The notes below the pieces were generated by a model. That model saw nothing but the letters and a program-made list of their open reading frames with translations, was not told where the DNA came from and searched no databases. Both the position numbers and the translations under genes were made by a program. This document shows, one piece after another, positions 3,657-56,032 of a DNA stretch of 64,000 nucleotides. The stretch's first letter is position 1. Every line of letters begins with the position of its first letter. Origin of the DNA: a virus; the IMG/VR virus record IMGVR_UViG_3300044856_000343, positions 4,194 through 68,193 of that record, one strand, 5' to 3'.

Positions 3657-4289
3657 ATGTCTTTATATGGAATTGATTTTTTAAATGAAAAATCTGATGA
3701 AATAGTATCTACAGCAAATAGACGTATCGAAGATATATTTGGATATAGATCTCCAAATGGTAGTTATAATGCTTTGGTAAAGATTACTGGAATAGATGGA
3801 TTGTTACGTGGAAGATCTGAAATGCTAGTATTAGATGAAACAAATACAAAGGTATTTTTAGATCTTCATAAAGACGGATCTTACAAAATTTCTGGTGGAT
3901 CTTGGAACGAAAATGAAGATTATATGGCTGCTGCTATTAGAGAAACTCAAGAAGAAATGAGAATCAATGTAAAAGATATTGTATATGCTGGTGGATATAT
4001 TACTTATTATAGTAATATAAATGGTCAACATAATATTCCGAAGCAATATAGATGGATTGGTACTTATACTCAATTATATATTGGAACAGAAAATGGTACC
4101 TATACTAAACCTATTGCTAAAAAAGATCAAGATGATATTTATTGGAAAGGAAAATATTATGATATTCATGAAGTATATAACTATTTAAACAAATATCATA
4201 AACATGCAATAAATATTATTCGTAGACGTAATAAAGAATTGGAGGACAATTATGGGTCAAATTATAACAGAAACAACTTTTTTATCTGA
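3657..4289 (+). CDS. Nudix hydrolase
   Basis: Nudix box GGSWNENEDYMAAAIRETQEEMRI (GX5EX7REUXEE); AAGGAGG SD. Confidence 0.85.
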   Translation: MSLYGIDFLNEKSDEIVSTANRRIEDIFGYRSPNGSYNALVKITGIDGLLRGRSEMLVLDETNTKVFLDLHKDGSYKISGGSWNENEDYMAAAIRETQEEMRINVKDIVYAGGYITYYSNINGQHNIPKQYRWIGTYTQLYIGTENGTYTKPIAKKDQDDIYWKGKYYDIHEVYNYLNKYHKHAINIIRRRNKELEDNYGSNYNRNNFFI

Positions 4290-5736: not shown

Positions 5737-6282
5737 TTATTTATCAATTCCATCGATAGCCATATCAATCAACTCATCATCACCGTAATCATAACTTAAG
5801 TTACTCTCACCAGCATCACCTGAGTTTGCAACGGCATCAATGTCATTGTCGTCCTGCTCTTCATCTGCTCCAGCGATCTCTGCACCTGTAGCATCTTCTA
5901 ATTCAAGAGATTCATACACTGATCTAGCAGCATCTGGACCAATATTATTTACAGATCCATTTACCTGCACATCATTAGGAACTACCTGAGCAGATCCATC
6001 TGGTACGTTTCCAAGAATAGAATCTAATGCTGAGTCAAGATCTCCATTTGCAGATTCATAAGCCATACCAACTACGTGAGTAGATTTACCTTCCACTTCA
6101 TCAGTAGAGTGTTTAATCTTACCTAATCTCTCTCCGCAGTCACAAGTATCAGCAACGTGGTCTTTTCCATCGTTTCCTCTGAATGCATTGCCAACTATAT
6201 GGGTCTTATTACCCTCTACATCAGCTGTGGAATGCTTAACTTTTCCAGACCGTTCGTCTGCATCAGAGGCATCTAAAAAGGG
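5737..6282 (-). CDS. -1 frame extension (181 aa) of the 6273-8609 protein
   Basis: Frame is open from CCC TTT TTA at 6282 to the stop at 5737, bounded upstream by TGA. No ATG or SD before the track's GTG at 6096. Encodes two GK(V/I)KHSTxxVEGxxTH(I/V)VG repeats. Confidence 0.75.
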   Translation of the reverse strand, partial: PFLDASDADERSGKVKHSTADVEGNKTHIVGNAFRGNDGKDHVADTCDCGERLGKIKHSTDEVEGKSTHVVGMAYESANGDLDSALDSILGNVPDGSAQVVPNDVQVNGSVNNIGPDAARSVYESLELEDATGAEIAGADEEQDDNDIDAVANSGDAGESNLSYDYGDDELIDMAIDGIDK

Positions 6283-8609
6283 TCAGCAAAAGCCTCAAGA
6301 GCTGCATCTACAGCCTCGTTTGTTGCATCCTGATCATTGTCATGTTGATTTGCTTTCTTCTTTCCATGAAGAACAATTCCTGTTACACCGATAACTGCTA
6401 AAGCTGCAGCGATAGCACCAGCAATGATCTTAGGCTTATTAGCTTTACCTTCTTTTGCACATTTCTGCGTATAACTATCGATAGCATCTACAATCTTGTT
6501 GATTCCTGGAATTTTTAATGCCTGAGTATGAGCTTTATCTCCAAGTCCTGAAATTTTCTCTTTAATTCCATTCTCAACAAGTACTGACTCGATAATGTCA
6601 TCTAACTCATCATAAGAGTCATAAGACTCATTCTGTGATTGCTGCTTCTCATATTGCTTCTTTGTCATAACATGTCCAACAACAGCTCCTCCACCTAAAG
6701 CGGCTGCGAATGCACTAGCAATTGCTGCTTTTCTTACATTTGGATGTGCCTGCATATATTTGTAAGCAGCTTCTGAAGCAGATTTAACAGCTTTTCTGAT
6801 TTCAGATGGCTTGCATTTTGAAAGTAAGTTCTTATTTGCATCTTCATCAAGTACAAATACATACTCTTCATCAACTGCCTCTACAGACTCATCAACTGAA
6901 TCCATATAATTGTTCTCGTATCCGTAGCATGTTGACTCATCTACAGGAATAACCTCTCCAGCTAATCCAAGTTTAGCACCCTCAAGCTTAGCTACTGGTG
7001 GATAAACTGCAACTGTTAAGCAATCAGCAGCCTCATCATAGTATGTCTCATATGGTGAGTAGTATACTACTGACTCATTTGTCTGCTGGTCATCTTTACC
7101 CTGGGCTTTCTTCTTGTCATATGCTTTCTTAGCAGCAATTCCTGCACCTGTAAGAGCAGCGGCACCTACAGCAGCAGCGGCAATTTTACCTTTCTTATTT
7201 AATAATCTTTTATTCTTTGCATCAAAAACATTGCTTCCATCAGGTAACTGACCAATCTTTTTACCTTGTACAACCTTTTTGGTTGAAAAAGTATCAGCTA
7301 TCTTAGTTCCTAAAGATTTGCCATTTTTAGCTTCTGCAACTAAATAAGATTCCATTGAAATCTCTTCAATATGCTTAGCTCTTTCAGCTGATCTGAACTC
7401 ATCATAAGCCTCTTTAAGAGATCCTGTAAGAACAGTATCTGTATCACAAAGAGCTGCTTCTCCACAAGCAATATCGGCATCACCAATCTGAAGGAAATAA
7501 GCTTCATTCTGAGCTTTTTCTGATTTCTTCTTATTGTGTGCTTTGATGCCTTTAACTGCAGCAACTCCTGCACCTGTAAGAGCAGCGGCACCTAATGCTG
7601 CACCTGCAACTTTACCTTTACTAATAGATCCATCATCTTTAGTAAAAGCTCCTGCAATTTTCTTTCCAGCACCTTTAACTTTCTCTTTAACTCCTTCATC
7701 TACAACTGTAGCGTCATAGAATCCAAAATCAGTAGCTTCCTGTTGAGTATCCTGTGAATTGTTCTGTGCTTTCTTCTTATCAAGATGATGCTTAATAGCA
7801 GCACCTGCTGCTACGGTTGCAGCTGCAGCTCCAGTGCCAATAGCAATCTTTTTACCAAGTCCACTCTTCTTTTTTGCAACTTCTGGTAATTCCTTTGCTC
7901 GTAAAGCTGGTAATTCCTTTGCTCGTAAAGCTGGTAATCCAGATACTGGTCCAGATGCAATTGCCTCATCTAAAGCTTTCTCAAGTACCTTCTCCTCAAG
8001 AGATTCTGTACTTGCTTCAAAAGCCTCATCAATAGCTACAGATCCTTCACATAATGTATTTACTGCTTCATCAACAGCATCATATCCTGTAGCACTTGCA
8101 ATAATGCTCTCTGCAATGCTGTTATCATCATAAAATGAACCCATTGTATAGTCCTCCTTTACGTTATTATTATCATTTTGATCATCATTCTGGCTAATAT
8201 CTCCATCATTTGAAGGTGAGGAGCTATTATTATTCTGGTTCTGATCATCAGATTCTGTAAATAAATCATCCAGATCAAATCCCTCTTCGATAGCCTTCTT
8301 TATACCAGGTGTCACATCATGTGCCTGAGATTCAGCAGACTTACCTTTAAACATTCCTACAGTTCCTACTTCACCACTTACTGGGAGAGAAACATCTTTT
8401 GATCCTTCTGCATCTTTTTCAGAATAAGAAGCATCTCCATCCAACTGATATTCAGATTCAGGATCAGGACCTGTCCAAGGAATTCCAGCTTCATTAACAC
8501 CAGCAACGGCATCAATTAAGCTGTCATCTTCATCGAACATGAGATCAAAATCTAATTCATCCGATGTGCAATTAGCAAATACGGAATCCATATTTTTTGC
8601 TACTTTCAT
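6273..8609 (-). CDS. Modular acidic/basic-hydrophobic protein, probable virion head polyprotein
   Basis: Five Gly/Ala-rich hydrophobic helices, each followed by KK(K) and (Q/T)(N/Q)E(S/A); acidic spacers; late-type promoter at 8676-8687. Confidence 0.8.
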   Translation of the reverse strand: MKVAKNMDSVFANCTSDELDFDLMFDEDDSLIDAVAGVNEAGIPWTGPDPESEYQLDGDASYSEKDAEGSKDVSLPVSGEVGTVGMFKGKSAESQAHDVTPGIKKAIEEGFDLDDLFTESDDQNQNNNSSSPSNDGDISQNDDQNDNNNVKEDYTMGSFYDDNSIAESIIASATGYDAVDEAVNTLCEGSVAIDEAFEASTESLEEKVLEKALDEAIASGPVSGLPALRAKELPALRAKELPEVAKKKSGLGKKIAIGTGAAAATVAAGAAIKHHLDKKKAQNNSQDTQQEATDFGFYDATVVDEGVKEKVKGAGKKIAGAFTKDDGSISKGKVAGAALGAAALTGAGVAAVKGIKAHNKKKSEKAQNEAYFLQIGDADIACGEAALCDTDTVLTGSLKEAYDEFRSAERAKHIEEISMESYLVAEAKNGKSLGTKIADTFSTKKVVQGKKIGQLPDGSNVFDAKNKRLLNKKGKIAAAAVGAAALTGAGIAAKKAYDKKKAQGKDDQQTNESVVYYSPYETYYDEAADCLTVAVYPPVAKLEGAKLGLAGEVIPVDESTCYGYENNYMDSVDESVEAVDEEYVFVLDEDANKNLLSKCKPSEIRKAVKSASEAAYKYMQAHPNVRKAAIASAFAAALGGGAVVGHVMTKKQYEKQQSQNESYDSYDELDDIIESVLVENGIKEKISGLGDKAHTQALKIPGINKIVDAIDSYTQKCAKEGKANKPKIIAGAIAAALAVIGVTGIVLHGKKKANQHDNDQDATNEAVDAALEAFADPF
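6276..6282 (-). other. Candidate -1 ribosomal frameshift site C_CCU_UUU(UAG)
   Basis: Canonical X_XXY_YYZ heptamer in frame, directly before the stop; GAGG 10 nt upstream. Confidence 0.7.
7883..7938. repeat. 24-bp coding tandem repeat (LPALRAKE x2)
   Basis: CTGGTAATTCCTTTGCTCGTAAAG x2 plus a partial copy, in frame within the 778-aa ORF. Confidence 0.9.
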
Positions 8610-8675
8610 TGCGTAGTCCTCCTTAACTTATTTTAGGATTTTTTGATATCAAATCTATAAAAATCTTAATGATTT

Positions 8676-8687
8676 TACTTTTATGTT
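8676..8687 (-). promoter_or_regulatory. Late-type promoter AACA-N6-TA
   Basis: AACATAAAAGTA upstream of the 778-aa gene. Confidence 0.6.
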
Positions 8688-11081: not shown

Positions 11082-11321
11082 TTATAAATCTTCAAAAAAT
11101 TTATCTGGTACTATTAATACTAATCCGATAATAAATGTAAATACTCCATATCCAGCAGCAAATAGTAATCCAATTAATGATAAAAATATTTTTACATAGC
11201 AACTATTTTTTATAAAATCTTCCATAGATTTAACAATTGGAATTCCTAATCCTATTATTATCAATGCAATAATGCACATAACAATCCCACCAATGATTGC
11301 TATAGTCCGTCTCAATTTCAT
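11082..11321 (-). CDS. Small two-TM membrane protein
   Basis: Two hydrophobic helices. Confidence 0.7.
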   Translation of the reverse strand: MKLRRTIAIIGGIVMCIIALIIIGLGIPIVKSMEDFIKNSCYVKIFLSLIGLLFAAGYGVFTFIIGLVLIVPDKFFEDL

Positions 11322-17288: not shown

Positions 17289-17300
17289 TATAACTTTGTT
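17289..17300 (-). promoter_or_regulatory. Late-type promoter AACA-N6-TA
   Basis: AACAAAGTTATA upstream of 17238. Confidence 0.6.
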
Positions 17301-35757: not shown

Positions 35758-35825
35758 TATATGAGTGTTCTAAATATGCCTAATGTTAATATTTCTTAAT
35801 ATTGATATTGTGGAACATCAATATA
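35758..35825. promoter_or_regulatory. Divergent pair of late-type promoters AACA-N6-TA
   Basis: Minus 35758-35769 and plus 35814-35825, each 28-30 nt from an ATG. Confidence 0.65.
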
Positions 35826-36896: not shown

Positions 36897-39601
36897 TGGC
36901 TAATTCAGATTGGAATATTAATAGTGATATTTATGATATCGCTTCTAATATTAATGATTTACAAAAAAGATACATTGAAGATGAAGATGAAACTACACTT
37001 TCTCTTGGTGTATTTGGATTCATATCAGATCTTGAAGCAAAGAAAATTCAGACATCAGTTATTATGACTGGTCAATTAGGAAATGAAATGTTTCCTACAA
37101 GATCTATGCTTACCAAAAATGTACTTACACATGCAGCTTATAATGGTATTTCTGATATCAATGCAAGACCTGCAAATATTACAATTACTCTTTGTACTAA
37201 GGTAGAGGATATTTTAAAATATGGACAAGATGATGGATGTTTTTATCTTGATCATAAATCCCCGATATATATCGAAAATATCGAATTCCATTTCGACTAC
37301 GATATTAAAATTACAAAGAAGAAAGTAAATGGTGTTTGGAGTTTTTCTGCACAATATGTGGTTACTGATATTGATGGTAAAAAGATAGTCAATAGATTAT
37401 CCAATATTACTAATCCTTATTTAAAACAACCATTTATCATTAATTTAAATAATGATCAATATGTTGCTATTCAGGCTGAAATTCGTCAGTGTACAATTGA
37501 GGAAACTTATGATTCAATGACATCTGATTCTATTATTGAAAATAAATCTTATATGTTTACTTTTGATAATCAGTTAGCAGATTTTAATGTCGTTGTTACA
37601 GATGGTGATGAGGAGACTGAGCTTACTCCATATATCTATGGTATGGCTATAGATCCAGATGTAGATAATTATTGTTGGTACCTTTATGTATCTAAGAATA
37701 CAATTAGAATTACTTTTGATAGTAAGTCTTATACTCCAGGTATAAACTCTAAGATCTATATTAAAACATGGACTACTCTTGGTGCTGAAGGTAACTTTGA
37801 TTATTTAAATAATGATGGTACTTCTCAAGGTATTTATGTTGATATTGATTCTGAAACTTATGGTTATTCTGGAATTACTTCTTATTTAGTAGCAATTACA
37901 GATTCTGAAGATGGATCTGACAGAAAATCAAAAGAAGAGTTACAGAAATTAATTCCTAAAGCAGCATTATCAAGAGGATCTATTACAACAGAATCTGATG
38001 TACGAAACTATTTTAATCTGATTGATAATGAGCAGAATAGATTAGTTATGCAAAAGAAAGTTGATAACCAATTATCTCGTGTTTGGTATGGATACTTTAT
38101 GCTAAAAGATGATGCTAATAATTTGATTCCTACAAATACTATTGATATCAGATTGGTTTTAAACAATGGTACTATGGTAAAATGTAATGATGGAAGATAT
38201 ATACTTCCAGCTGGATCAGTAATAAAATATGATGCAGAGAAACGAGTTGGATTTGTTATTGATGATTCAACAGTTCCAGTTCTATATTCTGATGCTTATT
38301 ATGACTCTAACTATTATTACTACATGACAGTGTATAATATAGTATTATGCAAAGATCCATTATACTCTGCATTCTATCTTACAATTTGTAATTATGATTC
38401 TTTCTTCGTCTACGATTATGTAAATGATGGATCTGAATTACAGTTTATTGCAAACAGATTTCATTTTGAAAGAAAACTCTTATTAGATCAAGATACTTAT
38501 AAGATAACTTTCAATATTGCACAATCAAACCTTGATGTCGATTTTGCTACTTATAGTACTGAGACATATTATGTAACAGATACAAATGGAAATAAGATTC
38601 CAAAAACTGTTACAACTCAGAACGTTAGAGCTATTTTAGTTCTTTATGATAATTCTGGAAATCCTTATAGATGGAAAGAATGTACTATGACAGACTATAA
38701 TAATTCTAGTAAGGTATTCTATTTTGAAACTGATATTACAACTGATAGTATGATGGATAATTTGAATCGTATCAAATTATGTGGAATGAATATTGTTGGT
38801 TCTAAAGATCAAGTATATGGATACGTGGATGAGAATGTAAAAGCATCTCTTTATATTGTAGCAAAGGTGGTTACAAGTAGTGATGTAAGTTTTCCAAGAA
38901 AAGATTTGGACAATATAGCTCCTGGATATGAAGATTATGTAGTAACCAATATCTATAATTGTTCTGAAGGATTACAGTTCTTAGAGAACTTTACAAATAT
39001 TCTTGATTCTAAAGTTACAGATGATGATGGTACTAGTGGTACAACTTATACAACAACAGCTGTTCCAGTAGTAGGAAGACATTATATGACTTCTGAAACT
39101 CAAGTTAGATATTTAATTGAAGAGATTAATGAGAGAAGAGCATATATTAATTATTGCTTAACTCTTTTGGAGAATTCTTTAAATATTGATTTTAAGTATT
39201 ATAATACTTATGGTCCGAGTGTTACTTATACTCTTGAAGATAATAATACTGGAATTGGAGCTGTAGATCTTACACTGAGATTTAAATTATCTTTGAAAGA
39301 TGAAACAGATGTAACTACAAAGCCAGATATTATAAACTACATTAAAAAATATATAGAAGATCTTTACGAGACTGGAGATTTACATGCTCCAAATCTTATT
39401 ACAAATATTATTAACGAATTTAAGGATAGAATCAATTATATTGAGTTCGTTGGATTTAATACTTTTGATGCAGATGACCAGCATATTGTTTTGAAAGAGG
39501 TAGAAGATCCAACTACAGTTCCTGAATTCCTTAATATTCGTAATAGGAAAGATATAGAAAGTGGAGAATTAGTTCCATATATTGATATTAAGGTAGTTTA
39601 A
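36896..39601 (+). CDS. Baseplate wedge protein, T4 gp6 / baseplate-J-like
   Basis: TTLGAEGN; GSDRKSKEEL...RGSITTESDV. Confidence 0.75.
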   Translation: MANSDWNINSDIYDIASNINDLQKRYIEDEDETTLSLGVFGFISDLEAKKIQTSVIMTGQLGNEMFPTRSMLTKNVLTHAAYNGISDINARPANITITLCTKVEDILKYGQDDGCFYLDHKSPIYIENIEFHFDYDIKITKKKVNGVWSFSAQYVVTDIDGKKIVNRLSNITNPYLKQPFIINLNNDQYVAIQAEIRQCTIEETYDSMTSDSIIENKSYMFTFDNQLADFNVVVTDGDEETELTPYIYGMAIDPDVDNYCWYLYVSKNTIRITFDSKSYTPGINSKIYIKTWTTLGAEGNFDYLNNDGTSQGIYVDIDSETYGYSGITSYLVAITDSEDGSDRKSKEELQKLIPKAALSRGSITTESDVRNYFNLIDNEQNRLVMQKKVDNQLSRVWYGYFMLKDDANNLIPTNTIDIRLVLNNGTMVKCNDGRYILPAGSVIKYDAEKRVGFVIDDSTVPVLYSDAYYDSNYYYYMTVYNIVLCKDPLYSAFYLTICNYDSFFVYDYVNDGSELQFIANRFHFERKLLLDQDTYKITFNIAQSNLDVDFATYSTETYYVTDTNGNKIPKTVTTQNVRAILVLYDNSGNPYRWKECTMTDYNNSSKVFYFETDITTDSMMDNLNRIKLCGMNIVGSKDQVYGYVDENVKASLYIVAKVVTSSDVSFPRKDLDNIAPGYEDYVVTNIYNCSEGLQFLENFTNILDSKVTDDDGTSGTTYTTTAVPVVGRHYMTSETQVRYLIEEINERRAYINYCLTLLENSLNIDFKYYNTYGPSVTYTLEDNNTGIGAVDLTLRFKLSLKDETDVTTKPDIINYIKKYIEDLYETGDLHAPNLITNIINEFKDRINYIEFVGFNTFDADDQHIVLKEVEDPTTVPEFLNIRNRKDIESGELVPYIDIKVV

Positions 39602-39612
39602 ACATCGATATA
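39601..39612 (+). promoter_or_regulatory. Late-type promoter AACA-N6-TA
   Basis: AACATCGATATA, 31 nt before ATG 39643. Confidence 0.65.
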
Positions 39613-39642: not shown

Positions 39643-40926
39643 ATGAGCCGATATAATGAAATGGTTGAGACTGTTAGAAGTCTTAATGAGAATAGAAATC
39701 GTCTCGCTCAGCAGGAAGCTGCTAAAATAGATAAAGCAGTAAATGAGCGCTCGAATTTCATGAATAATTATTACCAGATTAAGGAATCACAACATCAGCA
39801 GAAAATGATGAGGAGTAAGATTTTAGAGAGTGCTAGAAATGATGCTCTTGCTACTTGCTTGAAAGCAATCTATATTACAGCTCTTGAAGCTAATACTCTT
39901 ACAGACCAGAGTATTATTTTAGCTGAATCAATGGTTGATAATTATATCAAAGAGAATGGTGGAGCTTCTGCTATTCTTGGTAGAGTTGGAAATCAGTCAT
40001 ATCTTCTTTCAAGAATTACAGATATTGTAGAGGAAGCAGCTCTTAGAGAAGCTGAAGAAATTGAAAAAGATGATGATAAGGAAGATGCTAAAGCTGCAGA
40101 AGATAATAAGAAAGATCTTCAAGATAAAGCTCTTATTGCAGCTAAGGATTTCATCGATTCAGCTTCTGAAGATGATATTAAGAAATTCACTGCAAAGATG
40201 AAAGGTGAAGCTACAGATGATGGAGATGATGATATTCAGCTTCCAAAGAATGATGATGATAAGCAGGATACTCCAGAGCTTGAAGATCCAGATGATGATG
40301 GAGATGATAGCAAAGATGATTCGGAAGATGATGATGACGATCTTGGTGAGCCACTTCCTGGAGAAGATGATGATAGCTCTTCGGATGATGATAGCAAAGA
40401 TGATTCTGATAAATCTTCAGATGATAATGACTCTGAAGGAAAAGGAAAGATTCTTGATAATCTCGATAAAGAGGAAGATGTTCAGAAAGCTATTGATACT
40501 ATCAGAAATAGAGTTGCTGATGCTGAGGAGACTTTCATCAAAAACAATGCAGAGGATAAGAAAAAGATTGATGAGTTATTAACTAAGATCTCTACAAATG
40601 TAAAGACTGTTAATGATTTGGGTGACAAAAAAGATCCAAAGTCAAAGGTAGCTCAGGAGTCAGTTCAGATGGCTAAGAGACAGATTGATATGATTAAAAC
40701 TAATCGTCCTCTTACTATCTTTGAAAAGATGACAAGAAATCTCTCTCTTAATATTGTAAAGGATTGTGCTATTAGAGAATCATTTATTGAAGAGCATGGA
40801 CAGCTCGATGTAGATATGATTGTTGAGACAGCTAAAGTTATGTATGGTTTCTTGGAGACTGTAAATACTTTACAATTAGAGAAAGTTGATGAAGCTTACA
40901 TCAAGAACGTATTAGAAAATATGTAA
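39643..40926 (+). CDS. Probable head scaffold/internal protein with D-rich linker
   Basis: Many hxE(S/A) motifs, coiled-coil character, long acidic tract. Confidence 0.55.
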   Translation: MSRYNEMVETVRSLNENRNRLAQQEAAKIDKAVNERSNFMNNYYQIKESQHQQKMMRSKILESARNDALATCLKAIYITALEANTLTDQSIILAESMVDNYIKENGGASAILGRVGNQSYLLSRITDIVEEAALREAEEIEKDDDKEDAKAAEDNKKDLQDKALIAAKDFIDSASEDDIKKFTAKMKGEATDDGDDDIQLPKNDDDKQDTPELEDPDDDGDDSKDDSEDDDDDLGEPLPGEDDDSSSDDDSKDDSDKSSDDNDSEGKGKILDNLDKEEDVQKAIDTIRNRVADAEETFIKNNAEDKKKIDELLTKISTNVKTVNDLGDKKDPKSKVAQESVQMAKRQIDMIKTNRPLTIFEKMTRNLSLNIVKDCAIRESFIEEHGQLDVDMIVETAKVMYGFLETVNTLQLEKVDEAYIKNVLENM

Positions 40927-43498: not shown

Positions 43499-46400
43499 TT
43501 ATCCTTTAGCTATATCAGCAAGTACACTTACTAAGCTAATGATATTAGAATCAATCTCATCTGATCCAGATGATGTTGCTGTAGGTTTTGGAGCTGGTGT
43601 GCTCTTCTTTACAACAACTGGTTGTTTATTACTACTACTTCCTCCTCCAGATACATATGTCTTTAAAACATTGTAAATGGCTGAGATATCTGCAGTATTA
43701 TTAGCAATAGACTGAAGCAGATTTGTAATAGATGTAATCAGTTTATTAACTGTATCTGTGCTAATCTGTCCAGCTGATCCCTTAGAGGCAACGCTATTTT
43801 TAATATTTGTGAGCATTGAAGTTGTAGATGCAGCAAGATTAGAATCTCCACCGGAAGGACGACGAGCAATTTTATATTGCTTCGAAGCGACCATATTATT
43901 TCTAGATCCAACTCGAGAAGATAATAATATTCCTGACGATCCACCTGCATTATTACAGATGTCGTCATAACTAATAGGAACTAATCCAGATCCAGCACCA
44001 GCTGCTGTTATTCCTTTAAGACGACGAGCTTCAATGTAATGTTTAGAATCTTTTGTAAGTGGTGTAACCTTAGGTCCTTGACCTCCACCATGTCCAATTC
44101 TGTTTCCATTTCCAACATACATCTCTACATGTCCTACACGATATTTACGTCCAGAAGTGTATCCGCTATCAGGTCTAGAGTATAATAAAATATCTCCAGG
44201 CATTAACTTAGATTCTGTTGGTCCACTAGAATTAGATCCACCACTATTTACATTCATATTATTTGCAAGGTCAATAACCTCTGTATTTGCATTATTAATA
44301 ATAGCATCTGTAGAATTGCCAATGTCTTTTCCTGTAACCTTCTTGTAAGCCCAGTTAACTGTAGATGAACAGTCTGCTGAACCTTTTTCAGGATCTCTAG
44401 GTCCTTTCATTGAGTATGATAATTTACCTTGAATATCAAGTAATTTTTGAACAATAGCTTTTTGTGTAGCATTTCCATCTCCAACAGCTGCATTTGATAC
44501 AACTCCATCAGCAGATCCTGATGAACTACTTGAAGATGATGAACTATCATCATTAGCATATCCAAATAATTTTCCAAACGCATTTCCAAATACTGTTCCA
44601 ACATCACTAACAATATTTAATGGATTTGTAAACAAAGCATCTTCACCAGATGAACTACTTGAAGAATCATCTGAAGAAGAACCTACTCCAATACTTGGAT
44701 CTATTTCATATGTCTTTCCTGTAAACATTTCATAGAATTTCTTTGCATATGTTATACGCTTAGCCATCATTGGCTTACCAGCTCTTTCAAAAGCTGCCTC
44801 GAATTTAATTGTAGCAGTAGCCACATCTGTAAGAGCTTTAAACTGCTCATAAGTCATAGAAGAATATGAATATGACTTACCATCTTTGTCATTGATTGTA
44901 CCAGATTTTTTCCAATACTGACTAGGTAATTCTTCTGAAAGATACTCTAACTGAACAGCTAAAGTATTATATCCAGATCTACGCATTAATTCTGATTTTC
45001 TACCGCCATCCCACTGGCAAAGTCCATATGCTGAACCACCAGACTGATGTAAATTAATATCACAACCAGATTCTTGCTCCATATTACCCATAACACCTGC
45101 AGCAGCTGCTTCAGTCATTCCAAGCTTTTTAGTGAGATAAGCCCAAATCTGCTGAGTAATAGCATCATTACGGCATTCTCCACCACCACCTACAATACGT
45201 CTAAATCTTCTTGCAGATCTATTAGAACTGTATTTTCTATGTTTTAATTCACTAGCTGAACCAGCAACAGCATACTGAGCAGATTTAAGAATAGATGGAT
45301 TGTAAGATCTAGATCTATTAGATTCAGGATCATTTACAATTACATTTCCTCTTCTGTCAAGACCTGTAGCAAGTACATAATGGTTATTAGGACCAAATGG
45401 TGAATTATCTTTTGATGTATTAGAAGGATCTCTTCCAAGTAATACAAGTTTATCACCACTAGCAATTGAATTATACATGTCGTTTGAAGATCCACCAGAA
45501 ATAATTCTAGTATTAATACCTCTATCTCCAAGTACTTTTCCAAAGTAATCTAATGTAACTCCATTGGATGTCTGATATCCATTTGATTCAGATACAGCAT
45601 CTCCAACTGTCATATTTTTACCCATAGCTTTAGCAGCCATAGTAGCAACTGCAGGACCACAACCTTTTGAAGCAAAGCTTTGTCCTCCAATAGAATATTG
45701 TTGGTATTTAGGATCATACTGCGAAACAATTCCTGATGATCCACCACTCTTTTTACTCTTTTTAGACTTTTTGCTCTTTTTCTCTTTCTCTTCTTCGTCG
45801 TCTGCAGCTCCTTTAAATTTACCAGCAATTCCACCAAGCAATTTTACAATTGGTCCAAATATCTTTTCAGCAAATCCAACTATTGTAGAGAATATCTTAT
45901 TGATAGTTATACCAGCATTGAAGAAAGATCTTATAGGATCATCATCAGAAAATTTAGCCTTTACTTTCCAAATAGAAGATACACTTCCCTTTGAAGCCTT
46001 CTTTTTAATTTTCTTTATAGCACTATTAAATTTTTTCATATCAGATTTAATTTCATCGCTATGAATAGCTTCTTTAATTTTGTTACCAGCCATAAATACT
46101 GTAGCAAATGGTGTTAATGCTACTTTCTGTATTCCATCTATGACTTTTCCAAAACCACCTAAAGGATTTTCTTTATCCTCTTTTTTGTCTTTATCACCTT
46201 TCCAAAGTCCAATAGGATCTCCAGCTTTGACATATTTAATATTGTTTCCAGCTATAGAAGCTATTCCTAATCCAAAGTCTTTGACTTTATCAATTAGAGG
46301 TTGTATACCTTCTTTGACTTTTCCAAGAACCTTAAATATTAATGCAACAGGAGTACTAGTAACCTTATTTACAATAAGAGGAATTTGTCCAATTGCTTTT

Positions 46401-49400
46401 GAAAATACAGACGGAACTGCTGTTTTAAGATCTGTTCCTTTAACTTTGTCTCCACCTCCAGAGAAATCACTAAGAGCTACTTTCCACATACCTTTCAAAT
46501 CACCTTTTAATGATTTTGAACGTATTTTGGCATTCGCTTTTACAATCTCTCCTAATACACCAGGAAGCATATTTCCAAAGCTATCTCCTATACCAGAAGT
46601 AATTCCAGCAAGTCCACCACCATTCTTTTTATAAGAATCTTTAAATGTATCAATAGCCTCAGCTCCCATTTGCTTAATAGCACCACCAAAGCCTTTATCC
46701 TTTACATTCTTTTTAAATTTACCGAATTTATTTTTAGCATCTGCTACTGTAGATTTTGCAGCATTTCCAACACGTTCTGTCCAAGTATAATCTTTCAATA
46801 CAGATTTATTAAATTCCTGTACGGATTTAATTTTTGCACCATTTGCTTTATTATAATCTTCGACAGTCTTTTTAGCTTCTTCTCTTGATTTCTTTAATTC
46901 CTCAACGTCAATTCCTAATGCAGGTGCAATATAATCACAACATACATCAACAACTACGCTATCTGGAATTAAAGTTCCAACAATTGGTATTAAGTTCTTA
47001 ACCAATCTAAGTACACCAGAAAGTATTCTTTGTCCCATAGTAGGTTCTTTTACAATTCCTAATGTAGATCTAGCATCTTCATATCCAGTTGTAAAGTCAG
47101 CAACTGCAAATGCAATTCTTGCAACTACAACAACTTGACCTGCAGTTTTAGCAATATTTTTAGCTGTACTAGAACCAGCAGCATTAGCAATCTTAGTTGC
47201 TAATTTAGAAAACATTCCTTTTGTAGTATCTGGATCAATACCCATCTTAGCAAGTAATGGTGCAATCTTATCTGCAACTTTCATTAATGACTCTCCCATA
47301 GAAGATTGTAATGCAAGTCCAGCAAAATTATCTGTACCATTTTTCAATACATTCTTTAAATCAGCTCCAGCATTTGATTTAGCAAATGATTTAATTCCTT
47401 TTCCAATAGCAGTTTTTCCTAATACAGCACTTCCAACATTCTTTCTATTAGTTATTATTCCTCTTCCAATATTCTTTCTCAGTTTTGTACTGAATTTATC
47501 AGAATCAGTTTTTCTAACCTTTACATTACTAACAGTATTTGGATCAACCTTCTTTCCATTTTGATCAACCCATACTTCATTTCCATTACTATCTGTAGTT
47601 TTTGTTACAGTATTACCATTAGCATCTGTTGCTGTTGTAGAATCATCTTTAATTCCATAGCCACCACCTGTAGCTGCATTTGCAACTGAATCAAATGCTC
47701 CACCTAATCCAGCAGCCAATAAAGCAGGTCCAACAATATTAGCTAATACTCCTTTTAAACTAACCTTAGATAATAATTTCTTAGCAAAAGATCCATCTCC
47801 TGTAAAGAATCCAAATAATCCAGAAAGTACACCATCATCTCCAAATAATTTTGACATCATTTTAGATAAGATTCCAGGTTTCTTTTCTTTATCATTTCCA
47901 AGTAATCCATCCTTTAATTTACCAAGTAAACCAGATACACCACCAATAGCTGCTCCAATTCCAGGTACAGATTTAATAGCATTGAAAAATGTGCTATTTT
48001 TCTTATTAGTAACTTGTGTTTCTTTATCTCTAGTATCAACAATAGGTTCACCCTGATTATTTGTTGTATATTGAACAGGACCAAACATCGTATATTGAAT
48101 ATGATCTTTGGTTTTTTGTACATCTTCAGCTCCCTCTTTATCATAATCATGATCTTTTTGATCACTTACAATTCCATTAGCAATATCCTTAACAGCTTTT
48201 TTACCAGCTCCTTTTAATACAGTATATCTCTTCCATTTACCAGCAATAGTATATGGAGTTGTACTATTATGAAGCATAATATTCTGTATATTCTCAACTA
48301 ATCCAAGTAAGCTTCCTTTGTAATCGTCCTCAGTTTGCTCTTCTTGTTTATCATCAGAAAATCTTAATTTCTTTTCAGTATCAAGAGCTCCAATTAATGA
48401 TGTAATATTCTTATCATTAACTGCTCCCTTAAATCCCATAGACTTAAGAGCTGATCTAGCAGCTTCTTTTGATGACTTAGTATCAGCATTCATCTTTAAT
48501 TGGTTAATTGCACCTTCAAGACTATCTCCAAAATCATTAGATCTACCAGATTGCTTTAGTATTTCTCTAGCTCTATCTGTTTTACCTTTTTGAAGTTGTT
48601 TAATAATAGCATTTTGTGTTTTAGCATCTAAGGCTTCTGTACCTTGAGTTTCAAATGCTTTATATAATCCTTGATATGTATCATTATCAAGTTTTTTCTT
48701 AACATTTTTTCCACCTTGAATAGTTTCAAGTAATTGCTTAGTTTTATCTAAGCTTTCAACATTCTTTGTATTTGCAAGATATTTATCAAACTCTCCATAT
48801 CCAGCATTAGTATTCATTCCATATTCTGTACGCAAAGCATTACGCTCAGCAGCAGATAATGTTTCTCCATTATCACTAACATCATAACCTTTTCTTAAGT
48901 TATGCTTTTTCATCCTAGTACTAATTTTACCAAGTCCAAATCCAGCAATATTAACTGGAGCATTCATAAGAAATTTAGCACCTTTAGCTAATTTATTTCC
49001 TAAGCTTCCATCATTACCTTCAGCACGTCTCATTATTTTCTTTCGTAATGATTCACCTATGCTTTGTACTTTTCTAGAAATAGATTTAAATAATTTCTTG
49101 CCAAATCCTTTAATATTATTAGCCATATTTTTGAATATATCTTCAAGATTATTAATAATCTTATCATGAATATTACCAGCAAGACCTTTATCATTCTCAC
49201 CATCACCAAATAAGAACTCACCAAACTTCTCTGATTTTGATAAGTATCCTAAGCCAGCACCAACCATAAGGTTTCCAACAATACCAAAAGGACCTGCAAT
49301 TAATCCAGCTAATGCACCAGCAGCCATATTAGGAGCAGCTTCTTTTAACTTCTTTTGCATTTCCTTTTTAATAAGGTGACCTTCGTTTTTCTCATCTCCA

Positions 49401-52400
49401 AATAGCCAAACTTTTGCTTTCTCTGAAGAAGATACATATCCAACAGTTCCACCTAAAATAGCACCTAATACTGGAGATCCAGCAAATAATCCAGCAGCAT
49501 ATCCAATACCAGCACCTTTACTGATACTTGGTAATTGCTTTTTTATAAATTCTGCTGTATCTTTCTTAAATAATCCTTCTTGGAATTTACCATTATCATC
49601 TACATATCCAAACAATTTTTGTTGAATCTTTGTAGAGTTAGAAATTAATCCAACACCAGCACCAATAGCTGCACCCATGAATGGTCCAACTACAGCTCCT
49701 GTAAGAATAGATACTCCAGCTCCGCCTAAAGCTCCGATAGCCATAGCACCTTTATTAGCACCCATCTCTGATACAGATGTCTTTAGTACATCAGTAATTT
49801 TCTTCTTATCCTCATCAGGATTATCTCTACCAAACATTTGAGCTACAAATTTTGTAAATCCTTCACTAAGAAGTACAGCACCTTGTCCAATTACTTGTGC
49901 ACCACTTTCTGCTTTCTTTTGAAAATTGCCATCTTTGTCTCTTTTAAAGACACCTTCCATAGCTCTTTTCTTAATTCTATCAGAAATAGATTTACCGTAT
50001 TTTTTCTCTTCTTTATTATCTTTAGAATCCTTGTCCTTATCTTTATCTTCTTTAGATCCACCACCAGCTAGCTTTCTATAAATATTATTCTCGTTATTTA
50101 CTTGAGCTTGCTTATTTGTAGGTCCATTATAATAAGGATTTAATTCAGAAGGAATAATTAACTCACCTTCTGATACAACTACAGATCCTGCTTTAGTAAC
50201 TTTTCTACCATAAGCAGCTGTACCATTGTTTCTTACATTCTTTAATTCCTGTGCAGCAGTTTTACCATACAAGAATCTATTCTTAGCATCTACAACACCA
50301 TTAACAACATTTCTCTTTACATTATTCCAAGAAGCTTTAAATTGATCTTTAAAACTTGCTACTTGTTCGTTTCCGTTAAATAAATCTCTGAATTTCTCTT
50401 TTAATTTATCTTTGAGATTTGCAGTCATTTCATCGAACTTATTATACATTCTTTCAATAAGTCCAGACTTATTATCATCTCCCCAGAATAATTTATTAAG
50501 AGAATCTGTAGCAGTAAAAAGAAAACTTGATAAAGCTTGAAATGGAGCTTCATAAATAGACTTTACTTTACTCATAGCTTTTCCAAATTTTGATTTTGGT
50601 TCTGTGCTATCTTTATCAGATCCAAACGGATCTCTCATACCACCATCAAATTTATCTTTAGCAGTTTCCCAGGCTTTTTCTGCTTTATCACGTTCTTTAG
50701 CCTCTGCAATTTGATCATCTGACATTCCATAATATCTATAATTCATATCATCTTTCTTATCCATATTAGAATGCTCTCCAGATGATGAACCATTTCCTAT
50801 TACTCCATTATCATTGATCTTACCTAACTTAAATTTCTTTCTCTTTCTTCCTTTTCCTATAGGTCCAGAATTAGAAAGAATTGTATATATCCCTCTTAAA
50901 TAATCAAGAGAACTATTTCCGTATTTATCAATTATATTAGGTCCAGCTCCTAATTTACCATTAGAACCAAATCCATTATAAAGATAATCTAAAGGAGAAT
51001 TTCCACTAGCTTCAGCTTGTCTCATTGATCGATCAAGCTTTCCTCTTTCTGTAGCAACTCTTCCTCTAAAACTTGTAGCTCTGTTTCTTACATATCCTTT
51101 TCCAGTTTTCATATTGGATTTAGAATATGCATCCATAAGGTTTACAAGAATCTCATAAGCTTCATCAGAATTAATTCCTAATGATTTACGATAATCTTTA
51201 TTGTTTCGATTTTTCTTAAGATCAGAAAAATCTCCACCTTTCTTCAAAGCATTTAAGAAATATGCTTCTATCTCTGCTTGAATCTCTGGATTACCAGTTT
51301 GCTTTGCTTTTCTAAGAGCATCTTGTCTAAACTCTCCACCTGCTCTAGCAGCAGCTTTGGATTGATCATAATCTCTCTTACCTTTAATATTATTAAGGGT
51401 AACAAACTTACCGACATTATAATCATAATATCTTTCTTCTCCACCTAGCGCTGCATAGATCTTAGCAAGATAAGTTGGAATTACTTCTACAACTGATTTT
51501 CTTGCAATACCATCCCAAGCCACTTGACCTTTATTATATTTGCTAGTATCAGGAGATCCAAATCTTGATTTTGGTAGCAAGATATTTCCTAATATAACAG
51601 CTAAAGGATTCTTACTTTTTCTAAACTTTAATCCAGATTCTGATAAAGCAGAAGATAAAAATCCTCTAAGAGTTTCATCAAACATTTCTAATGATGATTT
51701 AGCAAACTTAGGCATCATAAATTCTATAGCAGTTGTAATAGCTTGCTGCATAGCTGGTACATTTTTAGAATTTTTAGGTTGAGGTTTTCCATCTCCAAAG
51801 ACCTTATTCATAAGATCCATCTGTTCCTTAAAATTCTCTTTTACCATAGATAAGTATCCAGCACCATCTAATTCACCATCTTTATTTAAGAATTTTAATA
51901 TAGATTTATCTCTACCTATTACTCCTCTTGCAGATGTATTAGATTTTGCTACAGACTTTTCAATATTTGATAAAGACCTTTGCATCTTATTCAAAGTATC
52001 TGTAGTGGTTGTATAGAAAATTGCTGAGTTCTGCATATGTGCATTTAATGGTACTCCTAATGAAGCTATTCCATTTAATGTATCATGCATACCTAATAAT
52101 ACATTAGTAACCTGGGTAAATCCAGCTTTATTAAGATCATATAATGCTTTTGTAGAAGCAACTTGTGATTTAGCAATATATTCAGCGCTTTTGGATGAAG
52201 AAACTCCAATAGCTTTTGATATACTATTTTCGAAATTAGTGAGAGAATTAATCAAATCTTTTGAATTTGATTCATTCTGTTCCAGTAAATCTTTTACATC
52301 ATTACTGGTATTTTCATCACCCCAATCTTCGGATTTCTTTGATGACGTTCCACTTCCAGTAATATTCTTTACAGTAGAATCCATAATATCATCTAAGATA

Positions 52401-52642
52401 TTAGAATATCTATCATTACCAATATCTAAATCTTTTGTAGATTGAGAAACAGATCCATTTCTCATTTTCTGCATAGATGATTTGGCATTCATAGCAACAG
52501 CTTTTCCAGATTTAATAATACTAGAAGATGTAGGAGCATAAGCTGAAAATACATCTCCAACAGCATATCCAAAAGATCTGTTTAATGATTTAATATAACT
52601 AGAAGCTTTATTATTTCTAAGATATTTGTTCGCCATATCCAA
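43499..52642 (-). CDS. Tape-measure-like tail protein with C39-like peptidase, tail lysozyme and NlpC/P60 domains
   Basis: Long helical Gly/Ala-rich body; GCGP...HYV...NDP (about 45260-45720); GNMEQES...YGLCQW...FERAG (about 44720-45150); DCSS...GD...GHVEMY (about 44020-44460). Confidence 0.85.
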   Translation of the reverse strand: MDMANKYLRNNKASSYIKSLNRSFGYAVGDVFSAYAPTSSSIIKSGKAVAMNAKSSMQKMRNGSVSQSTKDLDIGNDRYSNILDDIMDSTVKNITGSGTSSKKSEDWGDENTSNDVKDLLEQNESNSKDLINSLTNFENSISKAIGVSSSKSAEYIAKSQVASTKALYDLNKAGFTQVTNVLLGMHDTLNGIASLGVPLNAHMQNSAIFYTTTTDTLNKMQRSLSNIEKSVAKSNTSARGVIGRDKSILKFLNKDGELDGAGYLSMVKENFKEQMDLMNKVFGDGKPQPKNSKNVPAMQQAITTAIEFMMPKFAKSSLEMFDETLRGFLSSALSESGLKFRKSKNPLAVILGNILLPKSRFGSPDTSKYNKGQVAWDGIARKSVVEVIPTYLAKIYAALGGEERYYDYNVGKFVTLNNIKGKRDYDQSKAAARAGGEFRQDALRKAKQTGNPEIQAEIEAYFLNALKKGGDFSDLKKNRNNKDYRKSLGINSDEAYEILVNLMDAYSKSNMKTGKGYVRNRATSFRGRVATERGKLDRSMRQAEASGNSPLDYLYNGFGSNGKLGAGPNIIDKYGNSSLDYLRGIYTILSNSGPIGKGRKRKKFKLGKINDNGVIGNGSSSGEHSNMDKKDDMNYRYYGMSDDQIAEAKERDKAEKAWETAKDKFDGGMRDPFGSDKDSTEPKSKFGKAMSKVKSIYEAPFQALSSFLFTATDSLNKLFWGDDNKSGLIERMYNKFDEMTANLKDKLKEKFRDLFNGNEQVASFKDQFKASWNNVKRNVVNGVVDAKNRFLYGKTAAQELKNVRNNGTAAYGRKVTKAGSVVVSEGELIIPSELNPYYNGPTNKQAQVNNENNIYRKLAGGGSKEDKDKDKDSKDNKEEKKYGKSISDRIKKRAMEGVFKRDKDGNFQKKAESGAQVIGQGAVLLSEGFTKFVAQMFGRDNPDEDKKKITDVLKTSVSEMGANKGAMAIGALGGAGVSILTGAVVGPFMGAAIGAGVGLISNSTKIQQKLFGYVDDNGKFQEGLFKKDTAEFIKKQLPSISKGAGIGYAAGLFAGSPVLGAILGGTVGYVSSSEKAKVWLFGDEKNEGHLIKKEMQKKLKEAAPNMAAGALAGLIAGPFGIVGNLMVGAGLGYLSKSEKFGEFLFGDGENDKGLAGNIHDKIINNLEDIFKNMANNIKGFGKKLFKSISRKVQSIGESLRKKIMRRAEGNDGSLGNKLAKGAKFLMNAPVNIAGFGLGKISTRMKKHNLRKGYDVSDNGETLSAAERNALRTEYGMNTNAGYGEFDKYLANTKNVESLDKTKQLLETIQGGKNVKKKLDNDTYQGLYKAFETQGTEALDAKTQNAIIKQLQKGKTDRAREILKQSGRSNDFGDSLEGAINQLKMNADTKSSKEAARSALKSMGFKGAVNDKNITSLIGALDTEKKLRFSDDKQEEQTEDDYKGSLLGLVENIQNIMLHNSTTPYTIAGKWKRYTVLKGAGKKAVKDIANGIVSDQKDHDYDKEGAEDVQKTKDHIQYTMFGPVQYTTNNQGEPIVDTRDKETQVTNKKNSTFFNAIKSVPGIGAAIGGVSGLLGKLKDGLLGNDKEKKPGILSKMMSKLFGDDGVLSGLFGFFTGDGSFAKKLLSKVSLKGVLANIVGPALLAAGLGGAFDSVANAATGGGYGIKDDSTTATDANGNTVTKTTDSNGNEVWVDQNGKKVDPNTVSNVKVRKTDSDKFSTKLRKNIGRGIITNRKNVGSAVLGKTAIGKGIKSFAKSNAGADLKNVLKNGTDNFAGLALQSSMGESLMKVADKIAPLLAKMGIDPDTTKGMFSKLATKIANAAGSSTAKNIAKTAGQVVVVARIAFAVADFTTGYEDARSTLGIVKEPTMGQRILSGVLRLVKNLIPIVGTLIPDSVVVDVCCDYIAPALGIDVEELKKSREEAKKTVEDYNKANGAKIKSVQEFNKSVLKDYTWTERVGNAAKSTVADAKNKFGKFKKNVKDKGFGGAIKQMGAEAIDTFKDSYKKNGGGLAGITSGIGDSFGNMLPGVLGEIVKANAKIRSKSLKGDLKGMWKVALSDFSGGGDKVKGTDLKTAVPSVFSKAIGQIPLIVNKVTSTPVALIFKVLGKVKEGIQPLIDKVKDFGLGIASIAGNNIKYVKAGDPIGLWKGDKDKKEDKENPLGGFGKVIDGIQKVALTPFATVFMAGNKIKEAIHSDEIKSDMKKFNSAIKKIKKKASKGSVSSIWKVKAKFSDDDPIRSFFNAGITINKIFSTIVGFAEKIFGPIVKLLGGIAGKFKGAADDEEEKEKKSKKSKKSKKSGGSSGIVSQYDPKYQQYSIGGQSFASKGCGPAVATMAAKAMGKNMTVGDAVSESNGYQTSNGVTLDYFGKVLGDRGINTRIISGGSSNDMYNSIASGDKLVLLGRDPSNTSKDNSPFGPNNHYVLATGLDRRGNVIVNDPESNRSRSYNPSILKSAQYAVAGSASELKHRKYSSNRSARRFRRIVGGGGECRNDAITQQIWAYLTKKLGMTEAAAAGVMGNMEQESGCDINLHQSGGSAYGLCQWDGGRKSELMRRSGYNTLAVQLEYLSEELPSQYWKKSGTINDKDGKSYSYSSMTYEQFKALTDVATATIKFEAAFERAGKPMMAKRITYAKKFYEMFTGKTYEIDPSIGVGSSSDDSSSSSSGEDALFTNPLNIVSDVGTVFGNAFGKLFGYANDDSSSSSSSSSGSADGVVSNAAVGDGNATQKAIVQKLLDIQGKLSYSMKGPRDPEKGSADCSSTVNWAYKKVTGKDIGNSTDAIINNANTEVIDLANNMNVNSGGSNSSGPTESKLMPGDILLYSRPDSGYTSGRKYRVGHVEMYVGNGNRIGHGGGQGPKVTPLTKDSKHYIEARRLKGITAAGAGSGLVPISYDDICNNAGGSSGILLSSRVGSRNNMVASKQYKIARRPSGGDSNLAASTTSMLTNIKNSVASKGSAGQISTDTVNKLITSITNLLQSIANNTADISAIYNVLKTYVSGGGSSSNKQPVVVKKSTPAPKPTATSSGSDEIDSNIISLVSVLADIAKG

Positions 52643-55952: not shown

Positions 55953-56032
55953 AATTAACACCTCCATTTACTGTTTAAAAAATAAAAATCCTAATATTAT
56001 AACGGTGTTAATTTTAAACAAAAGACAAAAAA

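Follow-up and report, generated by a model that had tools for sequence, protein, structure and literature searches.

A conserved array of five Lys-flanked apolar cassettes and a predicted -1 frameshift in a hyper-acidic, probably late protein of an uncultured pig-gut jumbo phage

Based on comparative analysis of 64,000 nucleotides of an uncultured pig-gut jumbo phage (IMG/VR record IMGVR_UViG_3300044856_000343, positions 4,194 to 68,193; this whole stretch is called the window), we found that an open reading frame (ORF) on the minus strand, 6273..8609 with its TAG stop included, encodes in the zero frame a protein of 778 residues, P0001, with an array of five related cassettes. Each cassette combines Lys-rich flanks, an Ala/Gly-rich apolar run and, at a nearly fixed distance, a Glu followed by Ser or Ala, and the gene ends on a conserved heptamer that is predicted to direct -1 frameshifting. 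This anatomy is real, non-random and under selection. Our favored reading, to which we give a probability of about 0.35, is that P0001 is a late virion-assembly or head-internal precursor, that its five cassettes would be cut after Glu, and that the marginally hydrophobic helices, once ejected, would act on the membrane of the host. In this reading the anatomy and its conservation, the family, the late promoter motif, the synteny and the frameshift signal are observed, and the location in the virion, the cutting and the effect on membranes are inferred. The record itself is a 71-kb contig (44% complete) from a low-GC jumbo phage that is a distant relative of the Bacillus phages AR9 and PBS1.

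The original prediction, made from the letters of the window, had placed a polyprotein-like array of five modules at 6320-7960. This span corresponds to residues ~217-763 and takes in the whole array, and all five helices that it quoted occur verbatim in the translation. Its description of the module, with Lys flanks, a Gly/Ala-rich run and a (Q/T)(N/Q)E site before Ser or Ala, was borne out as well. P0001 has exactly five uncharged runs of at least 14 residues (Table 1) and exactly five matches to [QT][NQ]E with S or A as the next residue; in 20,000 shuffles that preserved the composition, neither five such runs nor five matches arose even once. The runs are 18-20 residues long, contain 45-72% Ala plus Gly and have 3-6 Lys/Arg within 15 residues on either side, and the site Glu stands 19, 17, 19, 16 and 18 residues past the run. 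Five motifs in 778 residues, versus three in the 20,123 residues of the other ORFs of the contig, amount to a 43-fold enrichment. Pairwise alignment of the cassettes gives 30-45% identity, and they have a common consensus (K-(I/V)A.AA..AAAL.GAG(V/I)A, then KKK(A/S)(Q/E), then Q.NE(A/S)); we therefore consider them true repeats. GC content is locally raised at the array (0.40 vs ~0.30) because of the Ala and Gly codons.

The net charge of P0001 is -43, that of single cassettes +4 to +8, and the Lys-rich islands together hold about +27. Spacers rich in Asp, Glu and Tyr had been proposed to separate the modules, and this was found to be correct only in part: the first 10-20 residues past each site Glu are acidic and aromatic, but the stretches from site to site carry net charges of just +5, +3, -9 and -3, and well-conserved domains make up two of them (371-430, column identity 0.81; 514-590, column identity 0.92). 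The domain at 514-590 gave no Pfam match and is more than a mere spacer. The strongly acidic parts of the protein are the N-terminal ~240 residues and the frameshift tail.

Homologues of P0001 were found in independent metagenome assemblies, 17 of them full-length at 70-86% identity and two at 43-45%, and in over 20 independent assemblies, the most distant at 43% identity, the frame stays open and has invariant blocks. Column identity is 0.97 in the N-terminal 112 residues, 0.67-0.90 in the apolar runs and 0.68-0.91 in the basic patch with the Glu site. The linkers before cassettes 1, 3 and 4 are hypervariable (0.31-0.53), and between strains of the pig-gut and bovine-gut data sets they are replaced or strongly diverged. 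In the linker before cassette 1, PALRAKEL is tandemly duplicated in a strain-specific way (7881-7934, minus strand; residues 226-243); other strains have unrelated variants of this linker, one of which is similar to the linker that precedes cassette 2.

A profile of the N-terminal region retrieved 130 clusters (50%-identity representatives), and in all of them the region stands at the protein N-terminus. Nearly all members are hyper-acidic, with net charges of -50 to -170, and the C-terminal tail Y-D-Y-DDELID is common to 34 of 158 family sequences. Variation of module number among relatives had been suggested as a check, and relatives with 1, 2 or 5 copies do exist, but only in about 10 of the 130 clusters, while about 120 have no cassette. 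We conclude that the cassette entered one branch as an insertion and multiplied there, and that it does not form the core of the family. The family itself is large and unnamed, and is made up of hyper-acidic, probably late proteins with conserved termini and a freely evolving middle. Since AlphaFold2 (AF2) gave a predicted local distance difference test score (pLDDT) of 33 for the whole protein and of 61 for the N-terminal region (predicted template modeling score 0.19; 50 sequences), P0001 is predicted to be mostly disordered, and its N-terminal region looks like a docking segment and not a globular fold. Both the contig and the complete sister genome G001 have just one copy of the region, so it is not a capsid-targeting tag shared by many cargo proteins, and this candidate role was ruled out.

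No member of the family is named in any source. Searches of PHROGs, Pfam, NCBIfam and PDB sequences gave nothing above threshold for P0001, a megablast search with 6 kb of the window found no match among cultured-phage records, and a search of the ESM Atlas by sequence features gave no usable lead. The Gly-zipper and YtxH models did not match the cassettes even at E <= 5. Single cassettes had sub-threshold matches to ETRAMP (19.2 bits, cut-off 29.1), HIG_1_N, DUF3824 and Rv0361, in each case to regions of a transmembrane (TM) segment plus lysines; DUF3824, ETRAMP and EbpS were rejected as the identity of the family, being compositional matches below threshold. A scan of IMG/VR for further loci added just two, both of the clade with one module, and a scan of metagenome contigs found no further related locus.

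The zero frame ends GAC CCT TTT TAG. In the -1 frame the same letters read CCC TTT TTA and open 181 codons, counted from CCC, that run into an annotated ORF of 119 residues (5737..6096); a slip would add 179 residues after F778. Heptamer and stop are identical in 10 related loci of three lineages, the first 61-72 codons of the -1 frame contain no ATG, GTG or TTG, and the differences in this frame by codon position (6/2/9, 9/2/13 and 5/2/6) show coding-like evolution. In the orthologues P0022, P0023 and P0027-P0031 both parts form one continuous ORF, with GAT CCT ATT GCT in frame at the equivalent place in P0022. The run of five T showed no indel in independent DNA contigs or in contigs from RNA libraries. 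A GAGG resembling a Shine-Dalgarno (SD) sequence lies 7-10 nt upstream of the heptamer in all three lineages; no significant frameshift-stimulating RNA structure was found downstream (z = -0.4 to -0.9). With the heptamer, a startless -1 ORF and cross-lineage conservation all present, a programmed -1 frameshift is predicted, with products of 778 and 957 residues and the C-terminal tail of the family on the long form only. Known bacterial and phage -1 frameshifts include that of dnaX, at A_AAA_AAG with an upstream SD-like element, and that of lambda G/GT. The present locus resembles them in its X_XXY_YYZ heptamer, the SD-like GAGG, two products with a common N-terminus and frame-fused orthologues. 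It differs from them in that C_CCU_UUU abuts the zero-frame stop, that no significant RNA structure was found on the 3' side, and that the extension represents the family's ancestral C-terminus.

The late promoters of AR9 have the consensus AACA-(6N)-TA/G (PMC5312081). A matching AACA-N6-TA stands at the same position before the gene in five lineages, distant ones included. In the window this motif is rarer than expected (25 found vs 66.5 +/- 7.6), and of the copies that do remain, many stand a short way 5' of an ORF start, several of them at 30-70 nt, which suggests that the phage may use promoters of the AR9 type for the non-virion RNA polymerase. Copies of the motif are found, for example, at 8676-8687(-), 17289-17300(-), 35758-35769(-), 39601-39612(+) and 55998-56009(-). 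No AR9-type early promoter motif was found in the 77-nt spacer upstream of the ATG. Given the conserved late motif and no early motif in this spacer, the gene is most probably expressed late. In every relative examined it lies directly downstream of a gene for 403-406 residues that belongs to PF24214/phrog_3013 and is predicted to be head-tail joining-like; its homologue in AR9, gp164, is annotated as a virion structural protein and is all that the window and AR9 have in common in synteny. AR9 gp162 was considered as the counterpart of the 197-residue ORF of the window and is unrelated to it.

The sites of the five cassettes read TQQE, AQNE, QTNE, SQNE and ATNE. Among distant relatives, P0022 has SQNE, STNE and SKNE, and the one-module clade has VKE/N-YEY (the slash marks the putative cut). 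In each cassette, whatever the lineage, a Glu at P1 and a small residue at P1' stand at constant spacing, even where the linker has become entirely different. In the heads of phiKZ and SPN3US, cleavage follows the rule S/A/G-x-E (A-x-E in SPN3US), and SPN3US gp245 is a precedent for multi-site Glu-specific cutting of head proteins (PMC10052503). In P0001 the invariant S91-A-E93 of the N-terminal region would fit S/A/G-x-E, and such tripeptides are common in a protein of this composition; the N-terminus itself, MKVAKNMDSVFANC..., has no L/I-x-E in its first 15 residues. AR9 encodes a head protease of the phiKZ gp175 type; phrog_3014 matches phiKZ with E 1.5e-91 and AR9 gp113 with E 9e-35. The match to AR9 gp113 (L033:28502-29653) falls into two pieces, consistent with a joined, intron-split coding sequence in the record. 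An AR9 virion protein other than gp164, gp077, is annotated in the record as proteolysed.

The same motif occurs in three other proteins of the contig. One is the 3047-residue tape-measure protein (TMP; 43499-52642, minus strand), where residues 122-125 read QNE-S; the corresponding protein of G001 (G001:C1:140687-151366) has QNE-A at residues ~126-129, the same aligned position, in a region that is conserved overall. Another is an unannotated ORF of 427 residues (39643-40926, plus strand) with LAQQE/AAKI, the Glu being residue 25 (motif at residues 21-26); as the sole other protein with a site near the extreme N-terminus, it may carry a short propeptide. The remaining copy lies inside the GH25 domain of an 884-residue lysin and was for this reason ruled out as a cut site.

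To evaluate the helices we used the Hessa scale of insertion energies, with values summed over 19-residue windows without position weighting. Membrane insertion had been proposed for the peptides; helix 5, with a negative energy in its best window, is by this estimate the sole clearly membrane-competent run, but helices 1-4 have positive energies (Table 1) and are marginal. Eisenberg mean hydrophobicity of the runs is 0.67-0.87 and their hydrophobic moment (muH) 0.03-0.11, from which they are predicted to be uniformly apolar, like TM segments or fusion peptides, and not amphipathic in the manner of antimicrobial peptides. The likeness to antimicrobial peptide precursors that had been proposed does not extend to amphipathic modules, and the N-terminus of P0001 is acidic and has no hydrophobic leader. 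Strongly amphipathic helices (muH 0.57) do precede runs 4 and 5, and AF2 pairs them with these runs as hairpins at its highest local confidence. Marginal hydrophobic segments have a precedent in this genome: the TMP, assigned to the tape-measure family phrog_9570, has Gly/Ala-rich marginal runs at residues 965-986 and 1058-1073, with dG of about +2.2.

In the favored scheme, the conserved termini of P0001, a docking-type segment at the N-terminus and the Y-D-Y-DDELID tail at the C-terminus, would contact two conserved partners, which would suit a virion-assembly or head-internal (core or ejection) protein. In this lineage the middle has gained five cassettes, in each of which a Lys flank and an apolar helix of Ala and Gly lead to the basic patch KK..DKKKA and, past a short linker of polar residues, to a Glu before Ser or Ala. 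The precursor would be packed into the prohead and cut after Glu by a Glu-specific head maturation protease into five fragments, each with a Lys-flanked helix at its C-terminal end. Being only marginally hydrophobic, the helices could stay soluble in the cytoplasm and the capsid, and after ejection they would enter or disturb the membrane of the host. The -1 frameshift at the stop would set the ratio of the 778-residue to the 957-residue form.

The late promoter motif, the virion-gene neighbor, the conserved Glu sites, the gp175-type protease of AR9 and the SPN3US precedent favor this scheme, as do the statistics and conservation of the cassettes, the hyper-acidic family with its single-copy terminal region, the predicted disorder, the similar runs of the TMP, the sub-threshold matches to TM-plus-lysine regions and the frameshift signal. 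Several results weigh against it. The Glu-Ser/Ala pair could be a helix-cap feature that was inherited by duplication. The original prediction had invoked sites of the kind cut by T4 gp21 and phiKZ gp175, and this does not hold for the cassettes: their P3 residues Q, T or K lie outside both L/I-x-E (T4) and S/A/G-x-E (phiKZ/SPN3US), and the Glu at P1 is all that they share with these motifs. Because the tetrapeptide also occurs inside the GH25 domain, the motif alone cannot define a cut. Searches for a head protease or capsid protein with PF03420, PF04586, phrog_3014, phrog_7478 and phmmer with AR9 and phiKZ proteins were negative in the 44%-complete contig and in the complete G001. Cuts at the proposed sites would give pieces that each have an acidic and aromatic head and a C-terminal Lys-flanked helix; the acidic head would thus stay joined to the next cationic helix, and the idea that acidic spacers neutralize the peptides until maturation does not follow. 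Four of the five runs have insertion energies of +2.4 to +4.9 kcal/mol. With about 120 of 130 clusters free of cassettes, delivery of membrane peptides cannot be the core function of the family. Searches by tblastn with P0001, its N-terminal 115 residues and P0027 against 50,697 phage records found no homologue in a cultured phage, and AR9 gp163, an acidic protein and the positional counterpart, was rejected as a homologue, as it gave no match to the N-terminal hidden Markov model of the family, and it carries no annotation as a virion protein.

We rate a scaffold-like or assembly protein that stays uncleaved almost as likely as the cleaved precursor. The acidic chain would then fill space or mimic DNA as a core component or assembly factor, and the Ala/Gly helices would self-associate through small residues or tether the protein to a membrane, so that it clusters, for instance in the prohead core or where assembly takes place on a membrane; Glu-Ser/Ala would be a helix cap. 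Scaffolds are likewise hyper-acidic and disordered with conserved termini, the gene appears to be late, no protease rule that is known covers the sites, the contig and G001 yielded no protease, the cuts would not part the charges, and AF2 pairs amphipathic helices with apolar helices 4 and 5 as hairpins. However, the spacing of 16-19 residues and the near-invariant Glu amid wholly changed linkers exceed what a helix cap needs, and a copy number from 0 to 5 would be odd for a stoichiometric scaffold. We consider it improbable that the cassettes are charge-balancing or DNA-condensing peptides of the capsid, comparable to the basic internal proteins of T4 or adenovirus core peptides, in which processed Lys-rich islands would bind DNA, the Ala/Gly helices would bundle and the acidic parts would be expelled. 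The net charge of +4 to +8 per cassette in a protein of -43 speaks for this, as does the invariant DKKKA(Q) patch, which goes beyond positive-flank rules; but uniformly apolar runs of 18-20 residues are not a known DNA-binding element, and fragments made at the Glu sites would be near neutral or acidic (+5, +3, -9 and -3) and would be expected to bind DNA poorly.

Similarly improbable is a late membrane protein of the infected cell that is not part of the virion, multi-spanning or repeatedly anchored, and that would act in lysis timing, superinfection exclusion or envelope remodeling. Five Lys-flanked runs of TM length, the sub-threshold matches to single-pass membrane proteins and the predicted late expression are in keeping with it. 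Against it stand the acidic N-terminus without a signal peptide, the prediction that four of the five runs are poor translocon substrates, Lys on both sides of each run, which is at odds with an alternating positive-inside topology, highly acidic loops of ~100 residues that would have to cross the membrane, and the lack of an apolar run in most family members. Low AF2 confidence and no Pfam or PHROG family might point to an artefactual low-complexity frame without function, but the comparative data effectively refute this: the frame stays open with its invariant blocks across the independent assemblies, and the gene has its own SD sequence and promoter and is covered by contigs in metatranscriptome libraries.

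Returning to the cleaved precursor, among its closest parallels are the head-internal proteins of phiKZ-like giant phages, on which the head maturation protease gp175/gp245 acts (phiKZ; SPN3US, PMC10052503) and with which it would have in common a jumbo phage with split multisubunit RNA polymerases, late genes and the multi-site Glu cutting proposed here. Unlike the head proteins of phiKZ and SPN3US, P0001 has no sequence homology to them, the P3 residue of its sites is Q or T, and the searches of its clade gave no protease; moreover, the known phiKZ and SPN3US substrates lose N-terminal propeptides, whereas a series of helix-bearing pieces is proposed here. In T4, the prohead core and internal proteins (gp22, gp67, gp68, IPI-III and Alt) are cut by gp21 after L/I-x-E and have an N-terminal capsid-targeting sequence. 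P0001 would resemble them as an acidic protein cut at Glu into small pieces, and its conserved N-terminal region could target the prohead; but this region has ~110 residues and is single-copy, compared with the 10-residue tag of T4, the sites have no hydrophobic P3, and PF03420, the gp21 family, was not found in the contig or in G001. For the Gly/Ala-rich segments of tape-measure proteins, entry into the cytoplasmic membrane has been proposed as a part of DNA injection. The apolar runs are similar to them in composition, in marginal hydrophobicity (dG about +2) and in belonging to virion-type late genes, but are Lys-flanked, occur five times with a fixed downstream Glu, and are part of a hyper-acidic protein, not of a tape measure. 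Eukaryotic multi-copy antimicrobial-peptide precursors, such as those of amphibian skin peptides and of insect apidaecin, have acidic propieces between cationic peptides. Repeated cationic units, a fixed processing-type site and the acidic context make P0001 similar to them, as an analogy of layout only; it has no signal peptide, its units are apolar and TM-like (muH 0.03-0.11), and cuts would keep the acidic segments attached.

A bolder version, which we regard as rather unlikely, is that P0001 is a capsid-loaded magazine of membrane-active peptides, in which a head protease with a site preference not described before would cut at a polar residue-N-E/S or A site, the five Lys-flanked Ala/Gly zipper helices would oligomerize in the host membrane once ejected (as a DNA conduit, for depolarization or for remodeling) and the frameshift would tune the docking tail. 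Were this so, which we think rather doubtful, P0001 would be a phage counterpart of the antimicrobial-peptide precursors with several copies, and would found a new class of ejection proteins. On the favored reading itself, a capsid-borne protein that can be cleaved and carries membrane-inserting helices would be the first candidate for a membrane-active ejection component in the AR9-like group and would imply a head protease with a new site preference. It would address the problem of how 200-250 kb of DNA and a virion RNA polymerase of jumbo phages from Gram-positive gut hosts cross the host membrane, and what fills and organizes their large heads. Regardless of the reading, a membrane-anchor-like cassette was inserted and amplified in one branch of the family, and the cassette array is tied to a conserved frameshift signal.

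Table 1. Features of the P0001 gene and its surroundings (window coordinates). dG, insertion energy of the best 19-residue window of the apolar run, in kcal/mol; a slash marks the putative cut; invariance and column identity refer to alignment A1.
Feature	Position	Strand	Details
Zero-frame ORF P0001	6273..8609	-	17 full-length homologues at 70-86% identity, 2 at 43-45%
Shine-Dalgarno AAGGAGG	8618..8624	-	8 nt 5' of ATG; kept in relatives
AR9-type late promoter motif AACA-N6-TA	8676..8687	-	AACATAAAAGTA; directly 3' of the stop of the upstream 403-aa gene; same place in L003, L006, L010, L015 and L009
Family-defining N-terminal region, residues 1-112	8274..8609	-	NMDSVF..D..FD.DD..ID..G..E.G; invariant S91-x-E93 and A96-H97-D98; 97% column identity
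Cassette 1, residues 240-292	7734..7892	-	Lys flank; apolar run 255-272; basic patch HHLDKKKAQ; site QQE291/A; dG +4.85
Cassette 2, residues 319-370	7500..7655	-	apolar run 334-352; basic patch; site QNE369/A; dG +2.44; Q367, N368 and E369 invariant
Cassette 3, residues 461-513	7071..7229	-	apolar run 476-493; KKAYDKKKAQ; site TNE512/S; dG +4.49; N511, E512 and S513 invariant
Conserved domain after cassette 3, residues 514-590	6840..7070	-	VVYYSxYETYYDE ... AKLEGAKLGLAGEVIP; 92% column identity; recognizable in P0022
Cassette 4, residues 613-662	6624..6773	-	amphipathic helix 604-621, then apolar run 628-645; site QNE661/S; dG +4.02; E661 invariant
Cassette 5, residues 713-766	6312..6473	-	amphipathic helix 702-719, then apolar run 728-747; HGKKKA; site TNE765/A; dG -1.08
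Slippery heptamer C_CCT_TTT	6276..6282	-	directly 5' of the TAG stop 6273-6275
-1 frame extension, 179 codons + stop	5737..6276	-	two D..ER.GK.KHST..VEG repeats and acidic tail NLSYDYGDDELIDM; predicted product 957 aa

Other genes of the contig encode split RNA-polymerase subunits, a GroEL-like protein, a primase, the TMP of 3047 residues and the GH25 tail lysin. In pig-gut metagenomes the phage is frequent (14 studies), and related contigs that cover the ORF were found in two bovine-gut metatranscriptome libraries. Between the genes for the primase and an RNA-polymerase subunit lies an ORF of 79 residues (11082-11321, minus strand) with two strongly hydrophobic segments (dG -4.6); its product resembles a small membrane protein, which might be holin-like.

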